Source: Bacteroidota bacterium (lineage in GTDB: Bacteria > Bacteroidota > Rhodothermia > Rhodothermales > UBA10348). From it: DNA of 64,000 nucleotides. Position 1 is the stretch's first letter; each line of letters starts with the position of its first letter. A model generated the notes under the pieces. The model had not been told where the DNA came from. It did not search any database and saw only the letters and a list, made by a program, of their open reading frames with translations. Positions 1 to 59,249 of the stretch are shown in pieces. The translations under genes and the position numbers were made by a program. Location of the stretch: the NCBI GenBank assembly GCA_022571255.1, contig JACZYD010000001.1, forward strand, positions 3,892 to 67,891, read 5' to 3'.

Positions 1-459
1 GTATTTGTGGGCATGATCGATGAACTGTTTCAGTTCTTGTACCTGTACAAGGGCATGGGCTACTATGATATGAACGATGTAGTCCTGAACTGCATCGGGT
101 CTGTCACCGGAATGTATCTTGTATCTGTTGTTCTGGGTGCGCCCGGATCCGGAATTGATCCCCTTCGATGGAAAATCCTTACCCGGCGAGTCCTCGGATC
201 ATGGGTCATTCTTTTTTCTCTCCTGGCATCGCTTTTTGCCACTGGCGTACTGGGCGTATTTGCAGATACCGGTCGACTCTCCTTTTATAAAAACCGAACG
301 GAAGAGCAGGGTCTTCCAGAGCGCCGGATCCGTACTACGCGAGTTGGGAATGACTGGTATCGCCTTCTTCCCCCGGAAGGAGTAAGTATTCTGTTTTTCC
401 TCCCGTTGCTCTTCTCTGGATTGGACCGGCAATCCAGATTGGAGAATAAAAATGATTGA
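1..459 (+). CDS. VanZ-like membrane protein, 5' end outside the window
   Basis: The open frame runs from the window edge. IDELFQFL...GYYDMNDVVLNCIGSVTG resembles the conserved VanZ C-terminal motif (E..Q ... D..N..G...G) and is followed by hydrophobic helices. The stop overlaps the start of the next gene by 8 nt. Confidence 0.45.
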   Translation, partial: VFVGMIDELFQFLYLYKGMGYYDMNDVVLNCIGSVTGMYLVSVVLGAPGSGIDPLRWKILTRRVLGSWVILFSLLASLFATGVLGVFADTGRLSFYKNRTEEQGLPERRIRTTRVGNDWYRLLPPEGVSILFFLPLLFSGLDRQSRLENKND

Positions 460-2998
460 CGGTAGCTCAAGTTCAACTTTCAACGTGACGACGGCCGATG
501 TGCTCGAACTTGCACCCAGACCGATCACATCTCGATATCAATTCCTTTTCTTTGCGGTAGTCGCCGCGTTTTTCGTTCTCGCCAAATCCTGGACGGCGTA
601 CCCGTTGGTTTTTCCTGAGTCCGGGAATGTTCAGTTACTGGGTGTGGACAGTTATTTTCATCTTCGCCATGCACAGTACTCGACCGAGCATTTTCCGGAA
701 AAGATGCTTTATGATGCAGGAGCTCGTTACCCGAATATCGGAAAACAGCAGGTCACGGGCCTGTTTAATCTTCTTATAGCTGCAACAGCTTTGATTGGAA
801 GTGGGTTCAGCCCGGCCCCCGGTGATGTCGCAAGGGCCGCGGCATGGGTGCCACTGTTGCTTTCACTCTTGTCTCTTTGGGTACTTTTTCGACTCGCTAT
901 TTTTCTTCGCGGGTTTACGGCGGGTGCATTCTCGATCCTGATTTACACATTGTATCCGGGTAGCTCGGCGACCCGCGGAATGCTTGGATTCGCCGACCAG
1001 CATGCAGCCGAGATGCTCTTCGCACTCGCCAGTGTTGCCGGTCTCACATATTGTCTGGAGCAGACACGGCGAAATCCAAACCTGTCATGGAAAAAGCCGG
1101 CCATGCTTCTTGCGCTCCCGTTCTCTGCATTCTTTTACGTCTGGCTGGGTACCCCGATGTATATCGCGATCATGGCAATATCTTTGTTCGCGCTTTTACT
1201 TCAGCAATTCCTCTTCACCGATGACACGCGCCGACTGGCGCTCGGATTGTTTCGATTCTTCGGTGCCGCGGCCATCTGGCAGTTTCTCGTAATCCTGTTC
1301 TGGCCCGATTTATTGATGGAATTGATAAAAGGAATGCGGTGGTGGAATCTCGGGGCCATGATTGCATTTGCCACCGTACCGGCTGCGTTTCTTCACGTTT
1401 CCCGACAATCCAGCGCTGTCGGAATAACACGCTGGTTCTTTGTTCTTATCTCCGTTATTACACTTTCGATTATTACATATGCATTTTTTGAGTATACGCC
1501 CCGCGGAAGGATGTTTTCCGGGTGGTTGCTTAGACCCAGAAACCAGAATATATCTGAGCAGCGGATTATTTCGCTTCTGGACTTCTGGATGTTGTTTGGG
1601 ACAGCAGGACTGATCGCTTCGATCAGTATTCCCGTAGCCCTGCTGAAAAAGCGGTCCTCGGGACCCGCGTCCTGGTCGATTCTTTCCGTTGTTTTCGGAG
1701 TGTCCATCACTTACATCTGGCTTCGAACGCACGACTTTGATTACGTGCCCCCGGTCTTCATCGCTTTGATGGGCGGTCTGGCCATTTCGTTTCTGATGGA
1801 CTTGAGCAAGCGGACGCTTGCTTCGTGGAAGTCCGCCACTTCCTCTGGACTACCCGCCGGGCTCTCCAGAGTCCCTGCGATAACGGTTGTCCTCGTCCTT
1901 TTATTGCCGATCTGGCCATTCAGGTTGACGGACTTGCCGTATCAGTCAATTAAGCAGATCAAAAATATACGACTCCAGTCAGATGCTTGGTTCAAGGCCA
2001 TGGCCTGGATGCATTCTCGGACGCCGATTCCGACTATTCTGCCTCTGACAGAAATCTCCGAACCCGTGCCAGACGTGCACCCGGCCGGATCATACGGAGT
2101 CCTTACCGCCTGGGACTACGGTAACTTTGTCGCCACTGTCGGCCATAGATTGCCCGTATCAAGTCGATTCCCATCGAAAAAGAGTGCAAAATGGCTTACC
2201 TCCGTTTCTGAAGCAGAAGGCGATACCTTGCTCTGCCGGGGATGTGTCTCGCCGGAAAACGTGAAATTTGTGGTTCTTGATGCCCGACTGGCGTCCAGAT
2301 TGTTCTTGGCGAAGGCCAGGGCAGCCGGACGAGACGTGAACATTGAGATCCTGGGGTTTTGGAATACAGAAGGAGATCCCGTTCCGCGCGTTTCGTTTGG
2401 AGAGATGTACGAGAATGCAATGTTAACACGACTTTTCGTCAAAGACGGCCATGACCTGGGTGGATACCGTCATATTTATGAGTCGTCTGAAATCGAGTTG
2501 ATCGCGCAGCGATATGTACCAGACCATACCCGATCCGGCTTCTGGTCGGTTCCCATCGAGTCGGAAGAGGACCTGGAGGCAGCTTTATTAATCACGCAGC
2601 GCCCGTTGACCGCCGTGGAAAATTTTTTCCTCTACAATGCCCGGATTGTGCCCGAACTGAAAATGTATGAAGTAGTCCGGGGTGCCCGTCTGATCGGAAT
2701 AGTGGCTCCCGGCGACTCCGTTTCAGCCTACTTACCGCTGAGATCGATGGTATCTCGTCGAGAGTTTTACTATTCGAACACCACTTTTGCGGACTCATCT
2801 GGACGATTTGAATTGCGACTTCCCTACAGCACCGACGAGTCCTCGCACCCCGGATCGACAACCATCTCTCTCGGAAATTATGAGATTCGAATTACGGGAA
2901 AAACCGGGTCGACGATACAGGAACTTTCGGTTACAGAAAATGCCGTGATTGAAGGACACAAACTGACATTCGAGCAGGTACCTCCAACGCTGAACTAA
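452..2998 (+). CDS. STT3/AglB/PglB-family oligosaccharyltransferase (GT-C fold)
   Basis: 848 aa: a polytopic N-terminal half with many hydrophobic helices plus a roughly 300-aa soluble C-terminal half. GVDSYFHLRH (nt 641-670) resembles the first-loop acidic motif (DPYYHLR-like). AWDYGNF (WDYG at nt 2111-2122, in frame) matches the WWDYG catalytic motif. FVVLDARLASRLFLAKARAAG and AMLTRLF...GYRHIYES resemble the DK-motif region and the C-terminal STT3 signature. Confidence 0.8.
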   Translation: MIDGSSSSTFNVTTADVLELAPRPITSRYQFLFFAVVAAFFVLAKSWTAYPLVFPESGNVQLLGVDSYFHLRHAQYSTEHFPEKMLYDAGARYPNIGKQQVTGLFNLLIAATALIGSGFSPAPGDVARAAAWVPLLLSLLSLWVLFRLAIFLRGFTAGAFSILIYTLYPGSSATRGMLGFADQHAAEMLFALASVAGLTYCLEQTRRNPNLSWKKPAMLLALPFSAFFYVWLGTPMYIAIMAISLFALLLQQFLFTDDTRRLALGLFRFFGAAAIWQFLVILFWPDLLMELIKGMRWWNLGAMIAFATVPAAFLHVSRQSSAVGITRWFFVLISVITLSIITYAFFEYTPRGRMFSGWLLRPRNQNISEQRIISLLDFWMLFGTAGLIASISIPVALLKKRSSGPASWSILSVVFGVSITYIWLRTHDFDYVPPVFIALMGGLAISFLMDLSKRTLASWKSATSSGLPAGLSRVPAITVVLVLLLPIWPFRLTDLPYQSIKQIKNIRLQSDAWFKAMAWMHSRTPIPTILPLTEISEPVPDVHPAGSYGVLTAWDYGNFVATVGHRLPVSSRFPSKKSAKWLTSVSEAEGDTLLCRGCVSPENVKFVVLDARLASRLFLAKARAAGRDVNIEILGFWNTEGDPVPRVSFGEMYENAMLTRLFVKDGHDLGGYRHIYESSEIELIAQRYVPDHTRSGFWSVPIESEEDLEAALLITQRPLTAVENFFLYNARIVPELKMYEVVRGARLIGIVAPGDSVSAYLPLRSMVSRREFYYSNTTFADSSGRFELRLPYSTDESSHPGSTTISLGNYEIRITGKTGSTIQELSVTENAVIEGHKLTFEQVPPTLN

Positions 2999-3165: not shown

Positions 3166-6100
3166 ATGATTTTTTCTCTTCCCGGGTCTTGGCAAGGTTT
3201 TACCGGTGGACCACTGGTTTCAGGCATACGATCGGTTCTGTCAGATGGCCGCGTCCGCCTGGCAAAGGTCACTGCGCTGACTATGGTCTGGGTGGCTGTT
3301 TCTGCCGTCACAGTTTCTACCGGAGGCAACGGGACCGGGTATCAGGTGCCTGATTTCGCGCGTCAAGACGCGACAGTTGTTCCGGCAACTCAGTTTTTGA
3401 CGTCAGACGGTATGCAGGAATCTTCCGGTGTCCTTACACGAGCCTCATTCCCTGCGGCGCGCTCGGATCTTGGCAACATACAGGACGATGCGATTAGGGA
3501 AGCGGTCGCTGGAATGCTGCCGTCATCGATCTGGAACAACAATGATTTCGATATCGTCGTTATTCCCGTTGTCCACCCGGACGGGTCATGGGCGATCACG
3601 GTGATTGTTACAAATAACGGCAGCATTGTATGGGCATTTGCCGACGTTAATTTCTTCTTCGCCGCATTGATCATAGGTTCCATCACAGGTACGGACAATT
3701 TCGGTCAGGTAATTAATCCTTTCTGGTGTTACGTATTCGGCTGTTTCATTGAGAATTTTGCTCCTGCTCAGAGTTTTTCTGTCGTCGTGTCCGGCGATGG
3801 AGCCGCTCCGGGACAAAATGCGTGCACGTATGAATCGAATAAAAATGACGGCGGTGGCCCGGTATTGGATTCTGCCGGAGATTGCTCCTTCTCAGGGCCC
3901 CTGCCGGGGAGTTTTGCGGCCCAGCATACAGTGGAACCGCAATTTTCGGGCACGTCAGATGTGCACGAGTCCTATTTCTACAGTTTCGAGAATACGACGT
4001 CCGGTCCATTAAACATCACGCATTGGGTAGACATAACCCACTCACAATCGCTCAGCGGGCTGGATGTCATGGGTCCGGGAACGACTGGTTGTGATTTTAC
4101 GTCGGGCGAGACACAATCAGGTTTCTTGTGTACAGCCCTGGTCCAGCCAAACACCGGGTTCGAAGACAATGCTTACGATTACTGGTACACAGCCAACGGG
4201 CAGGGCAATACGCACGCCGAAGCCTGGTATCAAGAGGGGAATAACTCGCCGGTCAACTATTACTCTTATGACCGCTTTTACGAGGAAAGGGCAGATTTTC
4301 AACTCAGTAAATCGTCCCAGGGTGGAATACCTTTTGAGGGACAACCGTATTCGTACACGCTTCACCTTAGCCAGACCGGTCCGTCGACGGCTCGAAATGT
4401 AATCGTGAATGACGATCTGCCCGAAGGATACACGTATACGGGATTTACAGGAAGTGGTACGATTGAGCTGACCGGCAACCAAATCGTATGGACAGTGCCC
4501 GATATCCCCTTTAATCGAACTCTCGAGGTCGAATATTCAGGGTCCTACAACGAGATCTATCCATGTTCCGTTTCGACGCGAATCAACTCGGCTATCGTCA
4601 TCTACACGAATGGATTGGATATCAATGCGAGTGACAACTCCGCCTTTGTGGAAACAGTACTGTGCCCCTATTCAGCGTCAGGATCTTTATGCGACGATCT
4701 TAACCAGAACAATCAATGTGATTTTGACGAGCCCAACGTCCCGGGGCCCACGCAATTATATGTTGACCACAACGGGGACACGTTTTTCAATGCAAGCTTT
4801 GATCAGGAAGTCGTTACGGACATAAACGGATTTTTTACAATCCCTAATCTGGGACCAGGGTTGTTCTCCCTGTTCTTGGGCAATAACCAGGGAATTCAGC
4901 TGACATCCCCGCCGTTCCTAATCTCATTTGCGTCATCTGATGTTTCGGGGTTGAAAATTCCCGTCACTGTTCCGCCACCCCCCGTCAATCAGGGATCGAT
5001 CCACGTTCAGAAGTTTCTTGATATCAACGGTGACGGCGTAAAAGACCCTGACGAACCCGGGTTTAACGGCGTAGCCATCACGTTGAATGGACCGGGCGGA
5101 CCGTTCGTACTGGTTACTCAAGACATGAACATGGACGGCGATCCTGCGATCGATCCGATCACGGAACGTGGCTGGGTCTGGTTTGAAAACCTGGAGCCCG
5201 GAGACTATACGTTGTCCGAGGCCGTGCCTGCAAACATGGCACAAACGACGCCCCCGGGCAATTCGATTGCCATCAATCTGGGTCCGGACCAGCGCTCGGA
5301 AGGACACGAATTTGGCAATCAGTGGTTCGACGCAGATCTCGGTGATGCGCCGGATTCCTTCGACCCGGAACGCCCCGCCTTTCCTGGAGGTTATCCTACA
5401 TTACTGGCGAATAACGGGGCCATTCATTTGATCGATGACGGCGTTCGGCTGGGTATAAATTTAGACGCAGAACCAGACGGACAACCGACCATACCGGCCG
5501 ACGGCGATGATAATTCCGGACAGGATGACGAGGACGGAGTCTTTTTCGGGGACGGATTTGCCCTGTTCTCATTACCTCTTGGCAGTGATCCCGGTGACCT
5601 GACGGGTGTCCCGGGTACATTACCAGGAACTTCGGTCGAAATACGGGTTCAGCCGTCGACCGATGGGCGCCTGGATGCCTGGATCGATTTTAACGGCGAT
5701 GGAGACTGGGAAGATGTCGGAGAACGTATCGCTGATGGGCTGCCGGTCTCTCCACCGTTTACGATCTTCCCGGTTGCCGTTCCTGAAGAAACCAGAATCG
5801 GATTCACCTATGCTCGATTCCGCTTCAGTAGAGTCGGGGTCGAGAGTTTTGATGGTCTTGCGCCCGATGGCGAGGTCGAGGACTATCTCCTCGTCTTTGT
5901 AAGGCACTTCATACTCGACTCTGCCGGAGATACGGGTGATGCCGTGCCTGGCGACGGGATGTGCGACGACGGCGCGGGAAGCTGTACGTTGAGAGCGTTT
6001 ATCGAGGAGACGAATGCCAGCGGTGAGCCCACGGCGTTGCTTCCGGGAACCGGTAAACGTGGAGCCGTTCTGCTGCAGCCCCAGTCTCCGTATCCTGCTA

Positions 6101-7050
6101 TTACATCATCCATTGTTATCGCGGGAGATGGTGAACTTGAAATCGACGGAAGTCAGGCCGGTGCGAGTGCAAATGGATTCACTATTCTTGGGTCCGGAGT
6201 ATCGATTCTGGAGCTCGATATTCATGGTTTCAGTAGTAGCGGAATCCGTATCGAAGGCAATGACCATTTGATGGCCAGAAACGACATCCACGACAATGGT
6301 GGAGACGGAATCAATATCGCGTCCGGTGATGGTACATCACTGACCGAAAACCGGATCTACAATAACGGCCGCCTGGGAATCGATCTCGGCGACGACGGCG
6401 TTACTGCCAACGATATCGGTGATGCGGATCTGGGAGCGAACATGCTTCAGAACCGACCCGAACTCACGCTGGCGACGGCGGAAACAGGGACCATTGAGGG
6501 TCTTTATTCGAGCTTTCCGGATCAAACGTACGTGATTGAATTCTTCTCCTCTCCAGTCTGTGATGCTTCAGGCAGCGGAGAAGGTGAGGTTTTTCTGGGA
6601 TCAGCGGAGGTTACAACAGATGGTACGGGAACCGTAAACTTCAGCATCGTCGTTCCAATTGAAATTGCGATTGGTGAATCGATTACGGCCACAGCGACCG
6701 GCGAACAGAGGGATACGTCGGAGTTCTCGGCGTGTCTGACTGCCATCAGCACGTCCATTGAACGGAATCCCGACGCTGAAATTCCGCAGGACTTTACGCT
6801 GGGTCAGAACTACCCGAATCCGTTCAATCCGGTGACGACGATCTCGTTCGGCCTCTCTCGCGCCGAATTTGTAACGATCGAAGTCTTCAATCTGCTGGGA
6901 AAACGTGTTGAAGTGCTTGTTACCGAGTGGAAAGAGCCCGGTGAGTATACGGTTCCATTCGATGGGGGTGCGCTTCCGAGTGGTATTTATCTGTACAGGA
7001 TGACTGCCGGCTCGTTCACTTCCTCGAAACAACTCACATTGCTTAAATAA
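3166..7050 (+). CDS. Large secreted multidomain protein with a T9SS C-terminal sorting domain (DUF11-like repeat, SdrD/Cna-B-like fold, GEVED domain, parallel beta-helix repeats)
   Basis: 1294 aa with a hydrophobic N-terminal signal-like segment (LTMVWVAVSAVTVSTG). YTLHLSQTGPSTARNVIVNDDLPEGYTYTG is DUF11-like. IHVQKFLDINGDGVKDPDEPGFNGVAITL is SD-repeat B-like. DLGDAPDSF...DDEDGV...AWIDFNGDGDWED...ARFRFS...DGEVEDY is a GEVED domain. IHDNGGDGINIASGDGTSLTENRIYNNGRLGIDL are beta-helix repeats. The C-terminus QNYPNPFNPVTTISF...GIYLYRM...KQLTLLK is a Por/T9SS CTD. The exact start codon is uncertain. Confidence 0.85.
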   Translation: MIFSLPGSWQGFTGGPLVSGIRSVLSDGRVRLAKVTALTMVWVAVSAVTVSTGGNGTGYQVPDFARQDATVVPATQFLTSDGMQESSGVLTRASFPAARSDLGNIQDDAIREAVAGMLPSSIWNNNDFDIVVIPVVHPDGSWAITVIVTNNGSIVWAFADVNFFFAALIIGSITGTDNFGQVINPFWCYVFGCFIENFAPAQSFSVVVSGDGAAPGQNACTYESNKNDGGGPVLDSAGDCSFSGPLPGSFAAQHTVEPQFSGTSDVHESYFYSFENTTSGPLNITHWVDITHSQSLSGLDVMGPGTTGCDFTSGETQSGFLCTALVQPNTGFEDNAYDYWYTANGQGNTHAEAWYQEGNNSPVNYYSYDRFYEERADFQLSKSSQGGIPFEGQPYSYTLHLSQTGPSTARNVIVNDDLPEGYTYTGFTGSGTIELTGNQIVWTVPDIPFNRTLEVEYSGSYNEIYPCSVSTRINSAIVIYTNGLDINASDNSAFVETVLCPYSASGSLCDDLNQNNQCDFDEPNVPGPTQLYVDHNGDTFFNASFDQEVVTDINGFFTIPNLGPGLFSLFLGNNQGIQLTSPPFLISFASSDVSGLKIPVTVPPPPVNQGSIHVQKFLDINGDGVKDPDEPGFNGVAITLNGPGGPFVLVTQDMNMDGDPAIDPITERGWVWFENLEPGDYTLSEAVPANMAQTTPPGNSIAINLGPDQRSEGHEFGNQWFDADLGDAPDSFDPERPAFPGGYPTLLANNGAIHLIDDGVRLGINLDAEPDGQPTIPADGDDNSGQDDEDGVFFGDGFALFSLPLGSDPGDLTGVPGTLPGTSVEIRVQPSTDGRLDAWIDFNGDGDWEDVGERIADGLPVSPPFTIFPVAVPEETRIGFTYARFRFSRVGVESFDGLAPDGEVEDYLLVFVRHFILDSAGDTGDAVPGDGMCDDGAGSCTLRAFIEETNASGEPTALLPGTGKRGAVLLQPQSPYPAITSSIVIAGDGELEIDGSQAGASANGFTILGSGVSILELDIHGFSSSGIRIEGNDHLMARNDIHDNGGDGINIASGDGTSLTENRIYNNGRLGIDLGDDGVTANDIGDADLGANMLQNRPELTLATAETGTIEGLYSSFPDQTYVIEFFSSPVCDASGSGEGEVFLGSAEVTTDGTGTVNFSIVVPIEIAIGESITATATGEQRDTSEFSACLTAISTSIERNPDAEIPQDFTLGQNYPNPFNPVTTISFGLSRAEFVTIEVFNLLGKRVEVLVTEWKEPGEYTVPFDGGALPSGIYLYRMTAGSFTSSKQLTLLK

Positions 7051-7191: not shown

Positions 7192-7596
7192 ATGCGTGAC
7201 CTTCTTCGGACGGATGTCCACGAAGATTTTCAGGATGGGCGTGTGGACACACTTTTGGAATATTTATCGGCTACAGTTGCCGAATTCGACATCGCGGGTA
7301 AAAAATCATCCCTCGATGTGCCGCAGGAATCATCAGTCGTTAAGTATCTTAATTCGTACCCAAATCCATTCCGTAATTCAACTACGATAGAATTCGGTCT
7401 GAATCAATCTGCAGAAGTCGAGTTGGTCGTGTATGACGTTCTCGGTCGTGAGGTGGAACAACTGGTAAAAGCTCCACTTTCAGACGGGCACTATAGATTC
7501 AGCTTTTATCCCCATAATCTGGCGCCGGGTCTATATTTTTCGCAACTGCGTACAGGGCAGCTCACTAAGACAGGGAAAATGATCTATACGAAATGA
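7192..7596 (+). CDS. Orphan T9SS C-terminal sorting domain ORF (possible gene remnant)
   Basis: 134 aa. The C-terminal 85 aa (NSYPNPFRNSTTIEFGL...VVYDVLGREV...GLYFSQL...KMIYTK) are a T9SS CTD. The N-terminal roughly 50 aa have no signal peptide. An in-frame TAG at 7177-7179 prevents any longer N-terminus. Confidence 0.5.
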   Translation: MRDLLRTDVHEDFQDGRVDTLLEYLSATVAEFDIAGKKSSLDVPQESSVVKYLNSYPNPFRNSTTIEFGLNQSAEVELVVYDVLGREVEQLVKAPLSDGHYRFSFYPHNLAPGLYFSQLRTGQLTKTGKMIYTK

Positions 7597-7687: not shown

Positions 7688-8983
7688 TCACGCGTAGCGC
7701 GCCCATTTGATGAGATCCTTGATGCTGGCTTTTTTTCCGTACATCAGAATACCCACGCGGTAGATCCTCGCGCTTACCCAGATCGCACCGATAAAACAGG
7801 CCACGAGCAGGCTGAATGACAATAAAACCTGCCAGAGCGGCACGTCTGTCACCGCGTATCGTACGACCATCGAGATGGGAGACGTAAACGGAATCATCGA
7901 CAATACGATCGAGAGCGTCGAGTTGGGTGCTTCGACCGTGGACTGCAGAAAAACAATCGCCATGATGATGGGAAGCATGACAGGGAGCATGAGACTCTGC
8001 GCATCCTGCTGTTGTTCGACGGACGATCCGATCGCCGAAAAAATACTGGCGTAAAGCAGATATCCCAGCAGGAAATACAGCACGAACCAGACGAAAATGA
8101 AAGGATCTATGACGGGCATGGAAATATTGGCTGCAGCGAGTAATTCATTCTGCGAAGCCGCCGCGGGCAAATTCAGATTTGCCGGATCCAGGAAGAGGGA
8201 TATGATTGCACCGGAAAAAATCGTCCCGACCATGATCAGAATGGCCCAGAAAGTCATCTGTACCAATCCCATGGCGCCGATCCCCAGAACCTTGCCCATG
8301 AGCAAATCGAACGGTCTTACGGAAGAGATAATGATCTCGACAACCCGGTTCATTTTTTCCTGTATGACACCCTGCATGACGACGGAGCCGTAAGTGAGCA
8401 TCGTGATATAAATCATGAAACCCATGATATAACCAAGCACGGCGAATGCTTCGGTGCCGCCCGACGCCTCGCCGGTTTCGGAAAGTTTTCTCATATCCAC
8501 TCTCACGCTTGCGTTCAGAATATCAAACACCTCCTGAGGGACGTTTTGCTCTTCCAGACGACGTTTTTCAACGGCCTGACGCGTGATAGAACGGATTTTT
8601 CGTGCAAACACAGTTACGCCACCGCCATCCCGCGAAAAATAAGTTGCTTTTCCACCGCCCGAAACGATGTTCGCATCAAGCAGCAGATAGCCGCTGTATA
8701 TACCCCGAATCACGGCTGCCCGGATAGAATCCTCAGGAGCATTGGGCTGGATAAACGTGATCTGACCATCATCATCGTGATAGTCCGCAAATAACAGCTC
8801 TGAGCGATCGATCACGGCGACGGTCTTCTCGCTACTGGTCAGCGATTTTACGGAAACAATTCCTACTATTACGAAAAAACCAATCAATGCGATGGGTCCG
8901 ATGAGCGTAGTAAGTACAAACCACTTCGTTTTTACGCGTTTCAGGAACTCGGTTTTGGCGACGATGAAGATTTTTTGTGTCAT
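7688..8983 (-). CDS. ABC-2 type transporter permease (NatB-like)
   Basis: 431 aa: an N-terminal TM helix, a large extracytoplasmic loop, then five or more C-terminal TM helices. It lies immediately downstream of an ABC ATPase, the typical NatAB arrangement. Confidence 0.75.
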   Translation of the reverse strand: MTQKIFIVAKTEFLKRVKTKWFVLTTLIGPIALIGFFVIVGIVSVKSLTSSEKTVAVIDRSELLFADYHDDDGQITFIQPNAPEDSIRAAVIRGIYSGYLLLDANIVSGGGKATYFSRDGGGVTVFARKIRSITRQAVEKRRLEEQNVPQEVFDILNASVRVDMRKLSETGEASGGTEAFAVLGYIMGFMIYITMLTYGSVVMQGVIQEKMNRVVEIIISSVRPFDLLMGKVLGIGAMGLVQMTFWAILIMVGTIFSGAIISLFLDPANLNLPAAASQNELLAAANISMPVIDPFIFVWFVLYFLLGYLLYASIFSAIGSSVEQQQDAQSLMLPVMLPIIMAIVFLQSTVEAPNSTLSIVLSMIPFTSPISMVVRYAVTDVPLWQVLLSFSLLVACFIGAIWVSARIYRVGILMYGKKASIKDLIKWARYA

Positions 8984-9023
8984 TTCAGAACAGGGGTTCA
9001 GGATAGATCTTCGGAGGGGGTTT

Positions 9024-9971
9024 TTACACTGGAACGGTATGTCCGGCTTCTTGGATCTTTTTTTCCTGCTCGGTCACTGCGGTCACAAAAATTTCCCGCA
9101 TCGACGGCTCGACAAGTTCAAAACGCGTTATATCATTTGCCGAACGGAGCGCTTCATCGAGGACTTCGCGGGGTTTTGTGTTGTGAAGAAGTCGCACCTC
9201 AGCGCGGTTTTTACTTCGCACATTGATTCGAATCAACTGTCTGGCTTCCATCGTATCAAGAAACGTATCTGATCCCTCGAAATCGATCACCACAGTATTC
9301 TTACCTGCTTTTCGTTTAATATCACGCAGGGCGCCTCTGACCAGAATCTCGCCTTGAGAAATCAGACAGATATCATCACACAGCTGTTCGACCTGCTCCA
9401 TCCTGTGAGACGCAAAAAGAATGGTGCAGCCTCCTTCTTTCAGCTCCATGATTACGTCCTGAAGCAGTTCTGCGTTGATCGGATCGAGTCCGCCGAAGGG
9501 TTCATCGAGAACGAGCAAATCGGGTTCGTGTAAAACGGCTGTAATGAACTGGATTTTCTGCTGCATGCCCTTCGACAACTCATTCGTTTTGCGACTGTAC
9601 CAATCTTCGGCCCCGAATCTCTCCAGCCATCGCCGGACTCGTTTGTTGGCTTCTTTTTTGGGAAGCCCTTTCAATTCCGCGAAATACACAAGCTGGTCGC
9701 CGACCTTCATTTTTTTGTACAATCCGCGTTCTTCGGGCAGATAACCCATGCGCTCCTGACTCCACGGTCCGACTTTTTTATCCCCGAAACGAATCTCACC
9801 TGAGTCCGGAACGGTGATGTAGGTGATCATTCGAATAGTGGTGGTTTTGCCCGCTCCGTTGGGTCCGAGCAAACCAAGAATCCGGCCGGGTTCCGCCGAA
9901 AAAGAAGCTTTGTCTACCGCCAGGACCTTATCAAATTGTTTCGTTACTTCATCGACAGTCAGAACGGGCAT
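9024..9971 (-). CDS. ABC transporter ATP-binding protein (NatA-like)
   Basis: Walker A GPNGAGKTT, ABC signature LSKGMQQK, Walker B LLVLDEPFGGLD and H-loop FASHRM. Confidence 0.9.
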   Translation of the reverse strand: MPVLTVDEVTKQFDKVLAVDKASFSAEPGRILGLLGPNGAGKTTTIRMITYITVPDSGEIRFGDKKVGPWSQERMGYLPEERGLYKKMKVGDQLVYFAELKGLPKKEANKRVRRWLERFGAEDWYSRKTNELSKGMQQKIQFITAVLHEPDLLVLDEPFGGLDPINAELLQDVIMELKEGGCTILFASHRMEQVEQLCDDICLISQGEILVRGALRDIKRKAGKNTVVIDFEGSDTFLDTMEARQLIRINVRSKNRAEVRLLHNTKPREVLDEALRSANDITRFELVEPSMREIFVTAVTEQEKKIQEAGHTVPV

Positions 9972-12215: not shown

Positions 12216-13622
12216 ATGAGCCTGATATCAGATATCCCAGTTCTGGATGATCTCGATGCTCCGCGAGCCTCGACGGTGCGCGCGACAGGAGAGATTCAGG
12301 TTTATCTCGAAACCTACGGGTGCCAGATGAATGTGTCTGACTCTGAGATTGTGGCTTCTATCCTCAAAGAAAACGGGTATGGACTGACGGGGAGGCTTGA
12401 AGACGCCGATGTCATTCTTATAAACACATGTGCCATCCGGGAAAATGCCGAGCAGAAGGTGCGCCGGCGGCTGGCTGAAGTTCGTGCACACAAACGTCAC
12501 AACCGCCCGGATTTAAAAATCGGCGTACTCGGCTGCATGGCCGAACGTCTCCGGGAAAACCTTCTCGAGCAGGAAAAACTTGTGGATCTTGTGGTAGGGC
12601 CGGATGCGTACCGCGACCTTCCGCGTTTGCTGGGCGAAACGGCCGATACCGGACAGGCGGTTGTCAACGTGCAGCTCTCACGCGAAGAAACCTATGACGA
12701 CATTACGCCGATCCGCTACGATTCCAATGGAATTTCTGCGTTTGTTTCGATCATGCGCGGCTGCGACAATATGTGTTCATTCTGTGTGGTTCCATTCACG
12801 CGGGGCCGCGAGAGGAGTCGGTCGATCACGAGCATTCTTGACGAATGTACCTCGCTTGTGGACGAGGGATACCGCGAAGTAACCGTCTTGGGTCAGAACG
12901 TAAATTCGTATCGATTCCGGCAAAACGGTACAGCGGTGGATTTTCCAGAGCTCATACACCGGATCAGCCTGGTCTCCGATGATCTTCGCGTTCGGTATTC
13001 GACCAGCCATCCGAAAGACTGTTCGGACGATCTGTTGAATGTGCACCGCGAACGAGCAAATGTATGCAACTATATTCACCTGCCCGTTCAACACGGCAAT
13101 ACGGATATGCTCAAGCGAATGCGCAGAACGTATTCGCGAGACGAATATCTGGGACTGGTGGAGAGGGCGCGCAAAATCGTCCCGGGGATTGCGCTGTCGA
13201 CCGATATCATCGCCGGATTTTGTGCCGAGACGGAAGAAGAACACCAGGATACGCTTTCTCTGATGCGCGAGGTGAGATACGATCAGGCCTATATGTTCAT
13301 GTATTCCGAGCGCCCGGACACTTACGCGGCTCGAAAATTCAAGGACGATGTACCTGAGGTGGTCAAGAAGCGGCGTCTGAGTGAGATTATTGCCCTTCAG
13401 AGTCAAATCTCACTGCAGAACAACAAAAAGGAAATTGGCCGGGAGCATACGGTGCTGGTAGAAGGACCGAGTCGCCGAAGCAATGATCAACTCTCAGGGC
13501 GTACGGATACGAACAAAATGGTGGTATTTGACCGCCGTGCGCTTAAAAAGGGAGATTACGTGCGAGTCCGGGTTCACGACTGCACATCGGCTACGCTTCG
13601 CGCGGAGGTCGTTGATGGATAG
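12216..13622 (+). CDS. miaB: tRNA-2-methylthio-N6-dimethylallyladenosine synthase MiaB
   Basis: [15 protein letters not shown] (UPF0004 domain), the radical [14 protein letters not shown] motif, and a C-terminal TRAM domain. Confidence 0.9.
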
Positions 13623-15024
13623 AACATCGATGCAGGAGCGTTTTGGAATTATCGGGACATCGCCGGGGATCCGGCACGTGCTGGATCGTGTCCGGCAGGT
13701 AGCACCCACGGATATTACGGTCCTGATCGAGGGCGAAAGTGGTGTTGGCAAAGAATTGGTCGCCAAGGCGGTACACGAACTCAGCTCCCGTCGGCACAAT
13801 CCTATGTTGACGATAAACTGCGCTGCCATTCCGGAGGGTCTGCTTGAGTCAGAACTTTTCGGGAATGAAAAAGGCGCATACACCGGCGCGGTGGAGAGAC
13901 GGCGCGGGTATTTTGAGGAGTCGAACGGGTCCAGCATATTCCTGGACGAAATTGGTGAAATGCCGCTGTCCGCGCAGGTTCGGTTGTTGCGCGTACTCGA
14001 AACAGGAGAATATTCGAGGGTTGGCTCGTCGACGGTCTTGTACAGTGATGTTCGTGTCATTGCCGCCACGAACAGAAATTTAGGCCAGGATGTAGCCTCA
14101 GGTCGTTTTCGGGAAGACCTCTATTACCGGTTGAGCACGGTGATCGTGACCGTACCCCCTCTTCGTGATCGAAAGGAAGACATTCTGCCGATTTTCGAGA
14201 GCTTTCGGCACAAGTTCACGCAGCGCTACAACAGACCGATGCGCACGCTTGACGCCTCAGCGCAGTCGCTGCTTCTGCGGTATCGTTGGCCGGGAAATGC
14301 ACGGGAATTGCGCAACCTGGCCGAACAGACGGCTGTCCTTTTACGGTCTGAGACGATAACGGCGGATGATATCAGGCCGTTTCTGCGTGGCGTTTCGGGG
14401 AGCGGGTCCGAAGCCGGATTGTTGCCGGTGCGAACAACCGGACAGGTGTCGAAAGACCCTGAATCCCGCGAACGCGGATTGATTTATGGCGCACTCCTCG
14501 AACTCAAGAAAGATGTAGCCGAACTCAAAGACAGTGTGGGTCAGCTGATTGCACGGCCTCCGCCGGAGTGGAGCGCTCCGCACAGTGCACAACACACCTC
14601 GCTTCGCCCGTCCCAGCTCGGGCCACATCTGGAATCCGGTTCTGATGAAAGTGCGTCACCGTCCTCGTTTATGCTGGATGATGAAGACTCTTTCATCGAG
14701 GATGTTGCTTACGAGATTGAGCAGGGTAACGGGGAGAATGGCGAGGATCTAAGTGTTGCGGCGGCTGGATCGGCGGCTTCTGGACAGGCTTCTGGATCGG
14801 CGGCTTCTGGACAGGCTGCGAGTGGATCCGGCGCGGGTTTGTCTTCCTCCGAAGTGGAAATCCCGTCCCTGGAAGATTCGGAGAGACGTCTTATCGAAGA
14901 AGCGCTCAAACGATATAACGGAAACCGTCGACAGACTGCGGAAGTCCTCGGGATCAGCGAGCGAACCTTGTACCGCAAGATCAAGGAATATGAAAAGTCG
15001 GATGCCGCCGAAGAAGAATCGTGA
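13615..15024 (+). CDS. Sigma-54-dependent transcriptional activator (bEBP) lacking an N-terminal sensory/receiver domain
   Basis: The AAA+ domain starts almost at the N-terminus ([12 protein letters not shown] Walker A). The GAFTGA-loop variant is [19 protein letters not shown] is present, and the C-terminal Fis-type HTH is [22 protein letters not shown] prefer the ATG at 13615 (8-nt overlap with the miaB stop) to the ORF-track start at 13483. Confidence 0.85.
14766..14819. repeat. 2 x 27-bp in-frame tandem duplication inside the bEBP linker
   Basis: TGGATCGGCGGCTTCTGGACAGGCT is repeated head to tail with a 27-bp period. It encodes GSAASGQAS / GSAASGQAA between the AAA+ domain and the HTH. 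Confidence 0.85.
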
Positions 15025-29681: not shown

Positions 29682-31160
29682 ATGTTACACCTTTCACAAC
29701 GGCAATCGCTGCAGCAAAAGCTGTCACCGCAACAGATTCAGTACATCAAACTGTTGCAGTTGCCGGCCCTTGCCCTCGAGCAGCGCATCAAGGCTGAAAT
29801 GGAAATCAATCCGATGCTGGAAGAAGGCCTGGATGAACTCGACGAAAAGTTGACGGCGGAGACCGCGGACGACACCCGGGAAGAGACGAAAGAGGGTGAA
29901 GAGAAGGATTCGAAAGAAGAAGAATACAATTGGAGCGAGCTGCTGGATAACGGCGACGATTTATATGGATACAAGGCTCGTGTGGATCGCAGCGCCGAGG
30001 AAGATCGCCAGGAATATGTACAGCCGGCATTGGACTCTGTGCTTGAGTCCATCCGCAAACAACTTGCCTTTCTGGAGCTGACTGACAACGAGGAACTGGT
30101 CGCGGATCAGATTATTGGCTCGATCGATGACGACGGTTATTTGCGTCGACCGCTGGAGTCCATAATCGACGACTTGGCCTTTAATCACGGTGTGTTGCTG
30201 AGCGAATCAGACATCGAAAGTGTGTTATACCGTGTTCAACGGCTTGATCCCGTGGGCGTGGCATCGCGTGATCTGCAGGAATGTCTGCTCGTACAGCTCG
30301 ATATGCTTTCTGCGGAAACCGCTGGGCGCGATACGGCAGTCGAAATGCTCCACCGCGCTTACAAGGAGTTCACGATGAAGCATTATGAGGCAATCATGCG
30401 TCGGCTGCACATCGACGGGGAGCAGCTGAAGGAGGTGTATGAACTCATTCAGCGCCTCGATCCGAAGCCGGGAGAGGGGGCATTTTCGGCATCATCGAAT
30501 TACGTCACGCCGGATTTTACGGTGCGGAATGACGACGATGGCTTCATCATCTATCTGAATAGCGCCAATGCACCCGAGCTTCGTGTATCGAAATCGTACC
30601 GGGAGATGCTCGAGAAAATCGTGGCGGAGAAAGACAAGGCAAAATCATCGTATGAGGCGGAAACCAAACAATTCCTGAAGTCCAAGTTTGAATCTGCCAG
30701 GTGGTTCATCCATTCCATTCAGCAGCGCCAGCAGACCATGACGCTCGTAATGCACGAAATCGTTCATCAGCAGGAAGACTTTTTCAAACTGGGAGAAGGA
30801 CACCTGAAGCCGATGATCCTCAAGGATATTGCAGAAGTGATCCGTATGGACATCTCGACGATCAGTCGAGTGGTTAACGGTAAATACGTACAGACGGATT
30901 TTGGGGTCTACGAGTTGAAGTATTTCTTCTCGGAAGGTCTCGCGACCGACGATGGTACGGAAGTGTCCAATAAAGAAGTCAAAGCCATCATCTATGGAAT
31001 CATCGTCGAAGAGGACAAGAAGAAGCCACTTTCCGATCAGAAAATTGCTACCATACTGTCGGACAGAGGATTTCATATCGCCCGGCGCACCGTGACAAAA
31101 TATCGCGAGCAAATGGGAACGCCGGTAGCGCGTCTGCGCAAGGAAATCGTCGTTTCCTGA
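29682..31160 (+). CDS. rpoN: RNA polymerase sigma-54 factor
   Basis: N-terminal glutamine/leucine-rich region I (LSQRQSLQQKLSPQQIQYIKLLQL), an acidic region II, the C-terminal HTH, and the RpoN box ARRTVTKYRE. Confidence 0.9.
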   Translation: MLHLSQRQSLQQKLSPQQIQYIKLLQLPALALEQRIKAEMEINPMLEEGLDELDEKLTAETADDTREETKEGEEKDSKEEEYNWSELLDNGDDLYGYKARVDRSAEEDRQEYVQPALDSVLESIRKQLAFLELTDNEELVADQIIGSIDDDGYLRRPLESIIDDLAFNHGVLLSESDIESVLYRVQRLDPVGVASRDLQECLLVQLDMLSAETAGRDTAVEMLHRAYKEFTMKHYEAIMRRLHIDGEQLKEVYELIQRLDPKPGEGAFSASSNYVTPDFTVRNDDDGFIIYLNSANAPELRVSKSYREMLEKIVAEKDKAKSSYEAETKQFLKSKFESARWFIHSIQQRQQTMTLVMHEIVHQQEDFFKLGEGHLKPMILKDIAEVIRMDISTISRVVNGKYVQTDFGVYELKYFFSEGLATDDGTEVSNKEVKAIIYGIIVEEDKKKPLSDQKIATILSDRGFHIARRTVTKYREQMGTPVARLRKEIVVS

Positions 31161-49879: not shown

Positions 49880-51304
49880 ATGGCTCTTCTGGAAAACACG
49901 AAATCAGATTACATGCCCTTTCTCTCCTCCGGAATCGAAACCATAGATTCTGCGTGGGGCGGATTGTTTTGCGGCGGTGCTTATCTCTTTTACGGAGAGG
50001 CCGCGGCGGGTCGCCATCTGCTCACCCTTCTGTTTGCCAGAGCGGGTGATGAATTCGACGAACAGACGATTTTCATTTCCTCTGATCGATATTCCGAATT
50101 GAAGATTCAATCCGGCTCACTCGGGTTTGATCTGGAGGCCGTACTGGCCTCCGGAAATCTGCACCTCGTCCGGATCCCTCCCCGTATGAAGTTGAGAGAA
50201 ATAGGAGACGACGGGGTTGCACAGGCCCTGCACAGTCTTACGAATCCGTTCAAATCGTACCGGCCCAAACGCATCATCATCAACGACTTTATGCCTTTTG
50301 TGGCGTTTCGTTCGTTCGAGAGATTCAGGATGGAATTCGTTCGATTCCTTGAAAGAACCGATGCCCTCGGATCCACATTGGTTCTGGGGATGTCCGAGCC
50401 CGCTAACGAACATTCCAGACGGGTCATCGAGTTCATGATCTCTCATCTGACAGGTGCGGTGCATATCGAGAGAGATGCCGAGGATCCAGGCTCAACAAAA
50501 CGTAAGCTTACACTCATTCCAACGTCTGGTCACATCAAGCGCTACTCGTTTGAACACTGGGACCTGGAAGACGTCGTAGCTGATACTCCACCCCATTTCA
50601 GGCCCTCAACCATGCAAAGCGTTCGACCCGGGGATACTCGTTCTCATAACTTGTCGACCCTGCAGACAAAGAAAACACTGGAATCAGAAGCCGCTGAAAG
50701 TTTCAGACCGGGCTATTCGCATACGCCATTGGTCGCCCCTCTGCAGGCTTCGGAAGAGGAAGTCGACGGTGAAGAGGTGGCGGTGGTTGCCGGGAAATCT
50801 ACCGCGAGCGACAGTGCGGCCGGCAAGAACGCAGAGGCAGACGATGCCGTCGCCATCGATCCGTTGGAACTCCCGGTCGGAAGTGGGTTGGATGTCGATA
50901 TTACAGACAGATCCTCATTCCTCAAGAGATTGGAGCGGGCAGTAGCATCCTCGTCCGAAGTCGGTGACAATTTCGTGATACTGGCTCTTCGCATGGAGCA
51001 ATCGGGCGATCCAAAGGACCGGGCGATTGGATTTGAGTTTCTGCTCGACGTTGTACACGATATTCTGCGACCACACGACGACATGCTCGTCGATATGGAT
51101 GGCGAACAACTGATCGTGTTTCTCGCACATACAAGAGAAGACGAATCGGATCAATTCTTTACTATGCTCAGGGATCATCTGATACGGGAAGCACCGCAAC
51201 GAGGCACCGATCTCCTTACCAGGATTTCCGCGATGGTCTCTGAAAACGGACGCCCGTTTTCTTCCGTGGTAGAATTCGTCACATTCGCTTTTATTCGAAA
51301 ATAG
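49880..51304 (+). CDS. KaiC/RecA-like domain protein with a degenerate P-loop, fused to a degenerate GGDEF-like C-terminal domain
   Basis: The N-terminus SGIETIDSAWGGLFCGGAYLFYGEAAAGRHLLTLLF follows the KaiC-like ATPase pattern (G.pgLD..LgGG...G...l..G.pGtGKT), but GKT is replaced by GRH. The C-terminus FVILALRME...FLLDVVHDILRPHDDMLVDMDGEQLIVFLAH follows the GGDEF-domain pattern, with DGEQL in place of GGDEF. Confidence 0.6.
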   Translation: MALLENTKSDYMPFLSSGIETIDSAWGGLFCGGAYLFYGEAAAGRHLLTLLFARAGDEFDEQTIFISSDRYSELKIQSGSLGFDLEAVLASGNLHLVRIPPRMKLREIGDDGVAQALHSLTNPFKSYRPKRIIINDFMPFVAFRSFERFRMEFVRFLERTDALGSTLVLGMSEPANEHSRRVIEFMISHLTGAVHIERDAEDPGSTKRKLTLIPTSGHIKRYSFEHWDLEDVVADTPPHFRPSTMQSVRPGDTRSHNLSTLQTKKTLESEAAESFRPGYSHTPLVAPLQASEEEVDGEEVAVVAGKSTASDSAAGKNAEADDAVAIDPLELPVGSGLDVDITDRSSFLKRLERAVASSSEVGDNFVILALRMEQSGDPKDRAIGFEFLLDVVHDILRPHDDMLVDMDGEQLIVFLAHTREDESDQFFTMLRDHLIREAPQRGTDLLTRISAMVSENGRPFSSVVEFVTFAFIRK

Positions 51305-58322: not shown

Positions 58323-59249
58323 CTATGGTGCAAATTGCAAAAGAATGAATACGAGCTTCTCCAGATCTGACCGAACACGTTTTCCGACCTCAAGAACTTC
58401 ACTGTGATCCAGCCCCTCATGAGATATCCCCGCTGCATAATTCGTTACAGTGGACAGTCCGGCTACCGACATTCCCAGTCGGCAGGCCTCTAAAACCTCC
58501 GGCACGGTACTCATCCCTACCACGTCGGCACCGAGCCTCTTAAAAGCTCGAATTTCAGCGGGTGTTTCGTAGCTGGGACCCCTCGTCCAGAAATACGTAC
58601 CCTCGCTCGTATCGATTCCGGCCTCACGGGCTGTCTCAGATGCTTTCGCCATCCAATTCGTATCGTAATAAAACGCGCGCTCGCGAATTCGCGAACGGGT
58701 TTCGTTTCCTGGTTCTGTGAATTCGATCTGCGACCCGCGTCGCTTGTTATCCCGAGGATGCCCCTCCTGCGGCTTGTTATCCGGCCGTTTCGCCTCGGCC
58801 GATCCTCTCCGGACGTCCGGTCGACGGCCCCATGTCCAGTCGATGTGATCCGTGATCCACATCAGAGATCCCGGCTTGAGTCCGGCGCTGATACCGCCGG
58901 CAGCGTTGGTAACAATCAAATTTCTCGCACCAATCGCATGCACAAGACGCACTGGGAAAACAACATCATCGGGCGCATAACCCTCGTACATATGCACCCT
59001 CCCCTGAACCACGACCACGTCTACGCCTGCGAGATCTCCGACGACCAGTCGACCTTCGTGTCCCGGGACCGTGGATAAAGGGTAATTCGGAATAGAGGAC
59101 GTGCGGAGTACGACAGGGTTCTTCACGGCGTCGGCCAGCGCTCCGAGGCCCGAACCAAGAATGAGCGCAACCTCCGGGGCCTTCAGAACACGCTTGTTCA
59201 CATACTCGATTGCTTGTTTCAGTTTCTCAGAATAAACGGACGGCTCCAT
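58323..59249 (-). CDS. Purine nucleoside phosphorylase (PNP/PunA family) with a charged insertion
   Basis: ALILGSGLG, GRLVVGDL...VQGRVHMYEGY, TNAAGG and GMSTVPEV motifs. A roughly 30-aa basic insertion (RRPDVRRGSAEAKRPDNKPQEGHPRDNKRRGS) follows the DHID motif. Confidence 0.85.
   Translation of the reverse strand: MEPSVYSEKLKQAIEYVNKRVLKAPEVALILGSGLGALADAVKNPVVLRTSSIPNYPLSTVPGHEGRLVVGDLAGVDVVVVQGRVHMYEGYAPDDVVFPVRLVHAIGARNLIVTNAAGGISAGLKPGSLMWITDHIDWTWGRRPDVRRGSAEAKRPDNKPQEGHPRDNKRRGSQIEFTEPGNETRSRIRERAFYYDTNWMAKASETAREAGIDTSEGTYFWTRGPSYETPAEIRAFKRLGADVVGMSTVPEVLEACRLGMSVAGLSTVTNYAAGISHEGLDHSEVLEVGKRVRSDLEKLVFILLQFAP

Follow-up and report, generated by a model that had tools for sequence, protein, structure and literature searches.

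An AglB-like protein of a Rhodothermales bacterium represents a bacterial clade of the oligosaccharyltransferase superfamily with apparently remodelled substrate pockets

In a 64,000-nucleotide stretch of DNA from a Rhodothermales bacterium (GenBank assembly GCA_022571255.1, contig JACZYD010000001.1, positions 3,892 to 67,891 of the forward strand; the whole stretch is called the window below), the open reading frame (ORF) at 452-2998 of the plus strand encodes an 848-residue membrane protein that an earlier inspection of the letters alone (the sequence-only reading) had taken for an N-oligosaccharyltransferase of the STT3/AglB/PglB type. The ORF is present, with all of the motifs that had been quoted from it in frame. 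We found that its product is a protein of the oligosaccharyltransferase (OST) superfamily (GT66) with the architecture of the archaeal AglB-L proteins and not that of PglB. It should be classed in an uncharacterised bacterial clade of AglB-like proteins whose substrate pockets are remodelled, and not among PglB-like N-OSTs that have a DK motif, and the name N-oligosaccharyltransferase is a reasonable lead for it but not a safe annotation. As for function, we give about an even chance to the reading that this is an active AglB-derived transferase, which would move a lipid-linked glycan onto surface proteins, probably at asparagine, with a non-canonical specificity.

In the AlphaFold2 model of the protein, computed from a 40-sequence alignment (pLDDT 90.7, pTM 0.89), 13 predicted transmembrane helices precede first a domain of mixed alpha/beta type and then a beta-sandwich domain, in keeping with the GT-C architecture of a polytopic N-half and a soluble C-half that had been proposed. 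When Foldseek was run against the PDB, four entries of AfAglB-L (Archaeoglobus fulgidus AglB-L) came on top (E-values of 4e-33 to 1e-31, TM-scores of 0.72-0.75) and eukaryotic STT3 came next (1e-14 to 1e-11), while PglB structures ranked 17th and 19th (5e-11 and 9e-11, TM-score of about 0.47). A phmmer run against PDB sequences aligned window residues 29-832 with AfAglB-L (3WAJ, E 7e-13) and paired GVD66 with GND47, D182-Q-H184 with D161-H-H163, AWDYG with WWDYG and YRHIYES with YRMIYES, indicating that the first-loop Asp motif and the YR..YES signature picked out previously are genuine. Two Pfam domains were matched, an AglB core-like domain (PF22627, residues 512-595, positions 1985-2236, E 2.7e-8, above the gathering score) and the AglB long peripheral (L1) beta domain (PF18079, AglB_L1, residues 744-836, positions 2681-2959, E 4.4e-14), and Pfam gave no match at E<=1 to PF02516 (STT3) and none to ArnT, PMT or other GT-C families. 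The sole NCBIfam match was TIGR04154, the archaeosortase A system-associated OST, which was covered over 7-831 of 831 positions with 273.3 bits but did not reach its cutoff of 450. Membership of the STT3/AglB/PglB superfamily was thereby upheld, whereas the PglB-type label had to give way to an AglB-type one.

The likeness to AfAglB-L (3WAJ, 3WAK, 5GMY and 7E9S), the top fold match at a TM-score of 0.75, comprises an end-to-end alignment, the 13 transmembrane helices, and the core and L1 domains, although the window protein is only 18% identical to it and its host is a bacterium, implying a polyprenol instead of a dolichol carrier (PMC8342417). The bacterial N-OSTs characterised so far are the PglBs of Campylobacterota and Desulfobacterota (PMC12229607), in agreement with the sequence-only reading. 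With the PglBs of Campylobacter and Desulfovibrio the window protein shares the superfamily and the form of a bacterial single-subunit OST; the fold match is, however, much weaker, PglB keeps WWD, the Arg R375 and the MI motif, and the AglB-specific C-terminal domains of the window protein mark an independent lineage.

It could be argued that the protein belongs to another GT-C family (ArnT, PMT or DUF2723) with a WDYG that arose by chance, or that the gene is contaminating archaeal DNA joined to a bacterial contig by faulty assembly, and the missing PF02516 match would fit such explanations. Both are effectively refuted. ArnT, PMT and the ALG3/9/12 enzymes have in common with the window protein the GT-C membrane fold and an Asp in the first loop, but they lack the AglB periplasmic domains and came up only as remote structural matches (E-values of 5e-6 to 1e-4; ALG12 5e-6, ArnT 8e-6, Pmt4 1e-4, with ALG9 inside that range), over 25 orders of magnitude behind AfAglB-L, to whose WWDYG the WDYG aligns. 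Because Foldseek and the profile searches both rank OSTs first, a better match to another GT-C family, which the sequence-only reading had proposed to look for, is ruled out. Contamination is contradicted by a uniform GC content across the gene and its flanks, by the bacterial genes that overlap and flank it (T9SS cargo, RuvC, BshC; T9SS, type IX secretion system), and by the same synteny in independent assemblies and in related Rhodothermales.

Word-indexed homology searches returned only 5-6 relatives, one of them from a Rhodothermales metagenome-assembled genome (MAG), and the family became visible through an exhaustive profile search, which gave 2808 matches, 388 of them at E<=1e-30. Column statistics were computed on 168 full-length sequences, among them 34 methanogen-type AglBs (Group I) and 132 members of the clade of the window protein, itself included, for which we use the name Group II and which amounts to at least 132 clusters at 50% identity. 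The bipartition of Group I and Group II was recovered in 40/40 neighbour-joining bootstrap replicates, so that the proposed phylogenetic placement came out beyond the Group I AglBs, not among them; the window protein is thus separate from the nearest sequence relatives that share TIGR04154 with it. A scan of one genome per GTDB species yielded 430 loci encoding relatives (given L-numbers here, with L001-L004 from the window species). Bacteria account for all 18 full-length Group II members that are named, and these fall into seven phyla (Rhodothermota, Bacteroidota, Verrucomicrobiota, Myxococcota, Pseudomonadota, Latescibacterota and Acidobacteriota); they come from Rhodothermales, Saprospiraceae, Latescibacterota, Zetaproteobacteria, Planctobacterium marinum, Burkholderiales, seven Verrucomicrobiota, Myxococcota and Thermoanaerobaculia. 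Every named archaeon (Methanosarcinales, Methanocellales, Methanotrichales and Methanoperedens) was placed in Group I, and the nearest relatives outside the bacterial clade were AglBs of Methanosarcinales, Methanocellales and Methanotrichales at 22-25% identity. We read Group II as the sister of the euryarchaeal AglBs, bacterial in every named member. The sequence-only reading was right in regarding an OST gene in such a genome as unusual, but it is not an isolated oddity and belongs to a broad clade across seven phyla.

Some bacteria were also found in Group I. Fully canonical AglBs, in which SWWDYGH, the Arg and the DK-type motifs are all kept and which cluster with the methanogen proteins, are encoded in Dehalococcoidia (L056, L065, L069, L072 and L078), Coxiellaceae (L040), other Proteobacteria including Gammaproteobacteria (L058, L067 and L073), Luteitalea (L085) and at L044. 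These likewise uncharacterised proteins look like a separate archaea-to-bacteria acquisition. Lombard (2016) had noted 'a few bacterial homologues' within the AglB clade of Euryarchaeota and concluded that at least two transfers from archaea to bacteria had taken place (PMC4973528).

In AfAglB, H81 and R426 lie near the phosphate site, and D552, Q571 and K618 near the peptide site (Taguchi et al., PMC8342417), while WWDXG has been called essential in known OSTs (PMC12229607). The motifs of Group I (SWWDYGH, Q.RF.YY, NANPFQ and the DK-type A.GKF) are each altered in Group II. The Trp-Trp-Asp of WWDYG makes up the +2 Ser/Thr pocket. In the window protein, WWDYG is represented by a degenerate AWDYG (2108-2122, with W554-G557 at 2111-2122) that keeps four of the five positions, the first Trp having become Ala. 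That Trp (AfAglB W550) is W in 34/34 Group I and 0/132 Group II sequences, and the motif Asp (D552) is D in 32/34 of Group I as compared with 82/132 (62%) of Group II, where E takes its place in 13/132; the WDYG read earlier as the catalytic signature does align to WWDYG, but the motif is not kept as such in its clade, and one of the refuting observations named by the sequence-only reading, a lack of conservation among homologs, is thereby partly borne out. The Q571 column is Q in 33/34 Group I sequences and P or another residue in Group II, the window protein included in this loss of conservation. The stretch that had been called DK-region-like, FVVLDARLASRLFLAKARAAG (F606-G626, 2267-2329), aligns with the DK/MI region by phmmer and column statistics but lacks its Lys: K618 is K in 22/34 of Group I and F, Y, L or other in Group II, and in the window protein K618 and M622 correspond to L617 and K621; the DK motif proper reads DxxKxxxM and the MI motif MxxIxxx[IVW].

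The most uniform change concerns the lipid-phosphate Arg. R426 of AfAglB, which we take to be the equivalent of PglB R375, is Arg in 34/34 Group I sequences and Asp in 132/132 Group II sequences. In the window protein this Asp is D428 of the THDFDY motif (1727-1744), and three independent alignments, anchored on the invariant Y431, concur in the equivalence, from which D428 would sit at the phosphate site as a diagnostic charge reversal. The H81 column, His in 15/34 of Group I, is D/E in 61/132 (46%) of Group II and Q100 in the window protein. Column 98 is Arg/Lys in 58% of Group II, and column 370, directly after the catalytic Glu, is His/Gln/Asn in 94% of Group II as compared with Ala/Val in Group I; together, the group-specific columns 98, 100 and 370 suggest a re-wired donor site.

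By contrast with the pockets, the metal and catalytic residues were kept. D66 in the first external loop (EL1) motif DSYFHLR (D66-R72, 647-667) aligns with AfAglB D47, the first DXD-like Asp and a metal ligand, and is Asp in 132/132 Group II and 34/34 Group I sequences. D182 and H184 of GFADQHAAE (986-1012) align with the metal ligands D161 and H163 of the second DXD motif, and E187 in the same stretch is also invariant. In external loop 5 (EL5), phmmer shifts the alignment by two residues, while MAFFT alignments put Glu on Glu, pairing E369 of the TIXE-like N-I-S-E (1547-1558) with AfAglB E360; this position is Glu in 130/132 Group II and 34/34 Group I sequences, with V/I in column 367. In OSTs, the [VI]-x-E motif of EL5 forms a pairing with the backbone of the acceptor peptide, and it also activates the amide (PMC8342417). 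Across the 132 Group II sequences, which are only about 25-35% identical, D66, D182, H184, E187 and E369 are 98-100% conserved, suggesting purifying selection on catalysis, and the wider set of D66, D182, H184, E187, E369, Y431, W554, G557 and R673 is 97-100% conserved and likewise conserved in Group I. R673 belongs to YRHIYES (residues 672-678, 2465-2485), which follows a TRLF at residues 659-662 of the translated ORF. Since the pocket residues are changed and the metal and EL5 residues conserved, Group II appears to have rebuilt both substrate pockets, that for the donor phosphate and that for the +2 Ser/Thr, around a retained catalytic centre.

This conservation bears on whether the protein is a catalytically dead relic, or a membrane protein with a purely structural or regulatory role. 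The degenerate substrate-pocket motifs could be so explained, and a second paralogue of the same species is indeed truncated beside an insertion sequence (IS) element. However, the catalytic residues are held in at least 132 clusters from seven phyla, the ORF is intact and full length in a conserved synteny, and the model is of high confidence, making such a relic very improbable. The second paralogue is a Group II gene upstream of the gene of a CBM9 protein (L001 292-1119 and 1158-2060; also in L002, L003 and L004); it has AWEYGNF, comprises the last 300 residues only, shares 40% identity with the window protein's C-terminal half, and is truncated directly after an rve-type IS transposase, near which all four contigs end.

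In the window, the gene is preceded by the 3' part of a gene for a 288-residue polytopic membrane protein (7-459, plus strand; the window starts inside it) with a VanZ-like Pfam match below the gathering score, and the stop of this gene overlaps the AglB-like start by 8 nucleotides (ATGATTGA). The overlap noted by the sequence-only reading is hence true, although the VanZ match itself is weak: the full-length orthologue at L001 3241-4107 matches PF04892 with an E-value of 7.7e-5, below the gathering score, and the L005 orthologue gives an unmarked PF04892 match stronger than that of the window. The same gene pair exists in L005, L006, L008 and the Saprospiraceae MAG L022. Downstream, after a gap of 167 nucleotides in which no terminator-like hairpin was found, lies the huge secreted protein that had been pointed out, a T9SS-sorted surface protein of 1294 residues with DUF11/CLIPPER, SdrD_B, GEVED, beta-helix and Por_Secre_tail domains by Pfam and NCBIfam (3166-7050, plus strand; the giant below). 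A sigma-70 promoter scan was uninformative (3 sites, with 6.1 expected). Orthologues of the giant adjoin the AglB-like gene in L001, L005, L007 and L009 and lie close by in L014, and we regard the giant as a candidate acceptor or functional partner. It is followed by a 134-residue protein (7192-7596, plus strand; cluster c6) with a T9SS C-terminal sorting domain, detected as Por_Secre_tail on an orthologue.

The recurring block in Rhodothermales consists of a 439-residue protein, a multicopper oxidase, the CBM9 protein, the VanZ-like protein, the AglB-like protein and the T9SS giant. In L005 (121-3780), L008 and L009, the 439-residue protein, without a Pfam match, and a three-domain multicopper oxidase lie upstream of the CBM9/VanZ-like/AglB-like genes, and in the window species the paralogue and IS element appear to stand in place of this pair. 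Accessory roles are probable for the VanZ-like membrane protein, which is translationally coupled, and for the CBM9 protein encoded upstream.

In the other phyla, Group II genes lie among genes of glycan assembly and export (for GT4, GT2, GT10, GT15 and GT28 glycosyltransferases, for a GDP-mannose 4,6-dehydratase and NAD-dependent epimerases, and for Wzm/Wzt, an MsbA/PglK-like ABC transporter, Wzy_C and a Wzx-like flippase) and radical-SAM genes, in likeness to the setting of pglB among glycosyltransferase and ABC-flippase genes. Such neighbours fit a lipid-linked glycan donor that is made in the cytoplasm and then exported. A gene for a PEP-CTERM protein is directly adjacent in three Verrucomicrobiota loci (L018 12380-13042, L021 2282-3127 and L024 2609-3409), so that, with the giants carrying a T9SS C-terminal domain in at least 4 Rhodothermales loci, a C-terminally sorted surface protein adjoins the Group II gene in two phyla. 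This parallels the archaeosortase association of the nearest archaeal family, TIGR04154. The cultured gammaproteobacterium Planctobacterium marinum K7 carries an intact Group II gene with AWDYGNL (L017 9908-12385) in a cluster with a GDP-mannose dehydratase, a GT15-like mannosyltransferase, a GT2 enzyme, Wzm/Wzt, an epimerase, a NodZ-like protein and an AT3-SGNH acyltransferase. Apparent neighbour ORFs in the high-GC loci L013, L049, L010 and L062 turned out to be spurious antisense ORFs and were discarded.

In the reading that we favour, the glycan would be pre-assembled on a polyprenyl-phosphate carrier by cytoplasmic glycosyltransferases, brought to the periplasmic face by a Wzx- or ABC-type exporter, and moved en bloc by the Group II enzyme to secreted cell-surface proteins, most plausibly to Asn, with the co-oriented T9SS-sorted giant downstream as the likely target in the window lineage. 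The enzyme would do so as a single-subunit GT-C protein with the metal site D66/D182/H184 and the EL5 glutamate E369 that it keeps, residues that bind the metal and activate the acceptor amide in canonical OSTs. Three features favour a protein acceptor: the EL5 [VI]-x-E is kept, so are the periplasmic AglB domains, and genes of sorted surface proteins repeatedly lie nearby. Given that R426 has become Asp, that the H81 position is unconserved, and that the first Trp, the Q571 equivalent and the DK-type Lys are lost, acceptor and donor are expected to be non-canonical: the loss of the +2 pocket residues disfavours a simple N-x-S/T rule, and the R-to-D reversal at the lipid-phosphate site suggests that the donor is bound in a different way. 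The canonical pair of N-x-S/T and dolichyl phosphate or pyrophosphate (Dol-P/PP) is thus probably not what serves as acceptor motif and lipid donor. Homology, fold, the states of the motifs, the clade structure with its taxonomic spread and the neighbourhoods are what the analysis shows; that Group II enzymes are active, and on which donor and acceptor, we infer.

Several results weigh against this reading. The WWDXG of the window protein is without its first Trp, the column statistics show the Asp missing in 38% of the clade, and the Arg of the lipid-phosphate site is replaced throughout. The giant contains 10 N-x-S/T sequons, with 11.1+-3.1 expected from its composition, and against orthologues of 33-39% identity these were conserved in 0/7 and 0/6 cases, while its Asn residues overall were conserved at 31-33%. 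Among the PEP-CTERM neighbours the enrichment of sequons was weak, the best case reaching P=0.028, uncorrected. The 64-kb window holds no glycosyltransferase, flippase or other glycan-assembly gene, extending to the whole window what the sequence-only reading had said of its downstream part for pgl-like genes. Finally, literature searches gave no biochemistry for any Group II member, no characterised bacterial member and no description or test of the Group II motif pattern. The sequon results, being negative or marginal, were not used as support.

If the motif differences were only neutral drift, the enzyme could be a canonical N-OST, equal to AglB and PglB in modifying Asn in N-x-S/T. The window protein itself does retain W554, D555, Y556 and G557 in the phmmer alignment together with D66, D182/H184 and E369, its closest structural match is AfAglB-L, and Joint Genome Institute (JGI) pipelines label relatives 'asparagine N-glycosylation enzyme membrane subunit Stt3'; in addition, some adjacent secreted proteins carry several sequons, such as the PEP-CTERM protein of L024 (7 N-x-S/T in 266 residues, the P=0.028 above being its value against shuffles) and a small upstream signal-peptide protein common to L016 and L019 with a conserved N-V-T. 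However, the contacts to the +2 Ser/Thr and the peptide are absent (the first Trp, and the equivalents of Gln571 and Lys618), the motif Asp and the phosphate-site Arg are replaced as described, and these changes are fixed clade-wide, unlike random drift, while the sequons of the giant are neither enriched nor conserved. We therefore consider a canonical N-OST unlikely.

The loss of the peptide-pocket residues and the negative sequon analyses would also be accommodated if this OST-derived transferase had a non-protein acceptor, passing a polyprenyl-linked polysaccharide to a lipid, a glycan or a cell-wall polymer in a role like that of WaaL, Wzy or ArnT. The gene lies inside a polysaccharide cluster of the Wzm/Wzt ABC-transporter type in Planctobacterium and Alteromonadaceae and near a Wzy_C protein in Zetaproteobacteria, and the conserved Rhodothermales neighbour CBM9 is a carbohydrate-binding protein. 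On the other hand, 98% of Group II keep the EL5 [VI]-x-E, the motif that pairs with the backbone of the acceptor peptide in OSTs (PMC8342417), the periplasmic AglB core and L1 domains are kept, and sorted surface proteins recur as direct neighbours in two phyla. A non-protein acceptor is hence rather unlikely, and transfer to surface proteins is preferred. A broader form of this preferred reading, which we advance tentatively and with clear reserve, is that Group II constitutes an unrecognised multi-phylum bacterial system of protein glycosylation, in which a re-tooled OST from a lineage akin to the euryarchaeal AglBs, with a new acceptor motif and a charge-reversed phosphate site, would decorate sorted proteins, T9SS-sorted ones in Rhodothermales and Bacteroidota and PEP-CTERM ones in Verrucomicrobiota.

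The remainder of the window consists of housekeeping genes, with RuvC among the bacterial genes, and of BshC, a PIG-L protein and T9SS markers, consistent with the T9SS- and bacillithiol-type context (like that of the Fibrobacterota-Chlorobiota-Bacteroidota, FCB, group) that had been proposed. Past both T9SS proteins, an ABC-2 type transporter pair (7688-9971, minus strand; a permease of 431 and an ATPase of 315 residues) is conserved in L001 and L002 and not in L005 and L006. A MiaB-like radical-SAM ORF (12216-13622, plus strand) overlaps the ORF of a sigma-54 activator (listed as 13483-15024, plus strand) by about 140 nucleotides, and the true start of the latter probably lies downstream of the listed one. 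Further genes of the window are those for sigma-54 (29682-31160), for a KaiC-like ATPase (49880-51304) and for a SpoIIE-type phosphatase of 900 residues (59227-61929).

N-glycosylation by OSTs in Bacteria is currently seen as a speciality of Campylobacterota and some Desulfobacterota, carried out by PglB, and the window gene points to a second and much broader bacterial radiation of the OST superfamily. Should these enzymes be active, they would display, within the OST fold, a specificity for acceptor and donor that is new, would tie glycosylation to the sorting of surface proteins by T9SS and PEP-CTERM systems, would add new single-subunit enzymes for glycoengineering, and would shed light on how AglB was passed between Archaea and Bacteria over time. 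With Planctobacterium marinum K7, a cultured host offers a practical experimental system. If the reading of Group II as a re-tooled glycosylation system is true, bacterial protein glycosylation of the OST type would reach well past Campylobacterota and Desulfobacterota.

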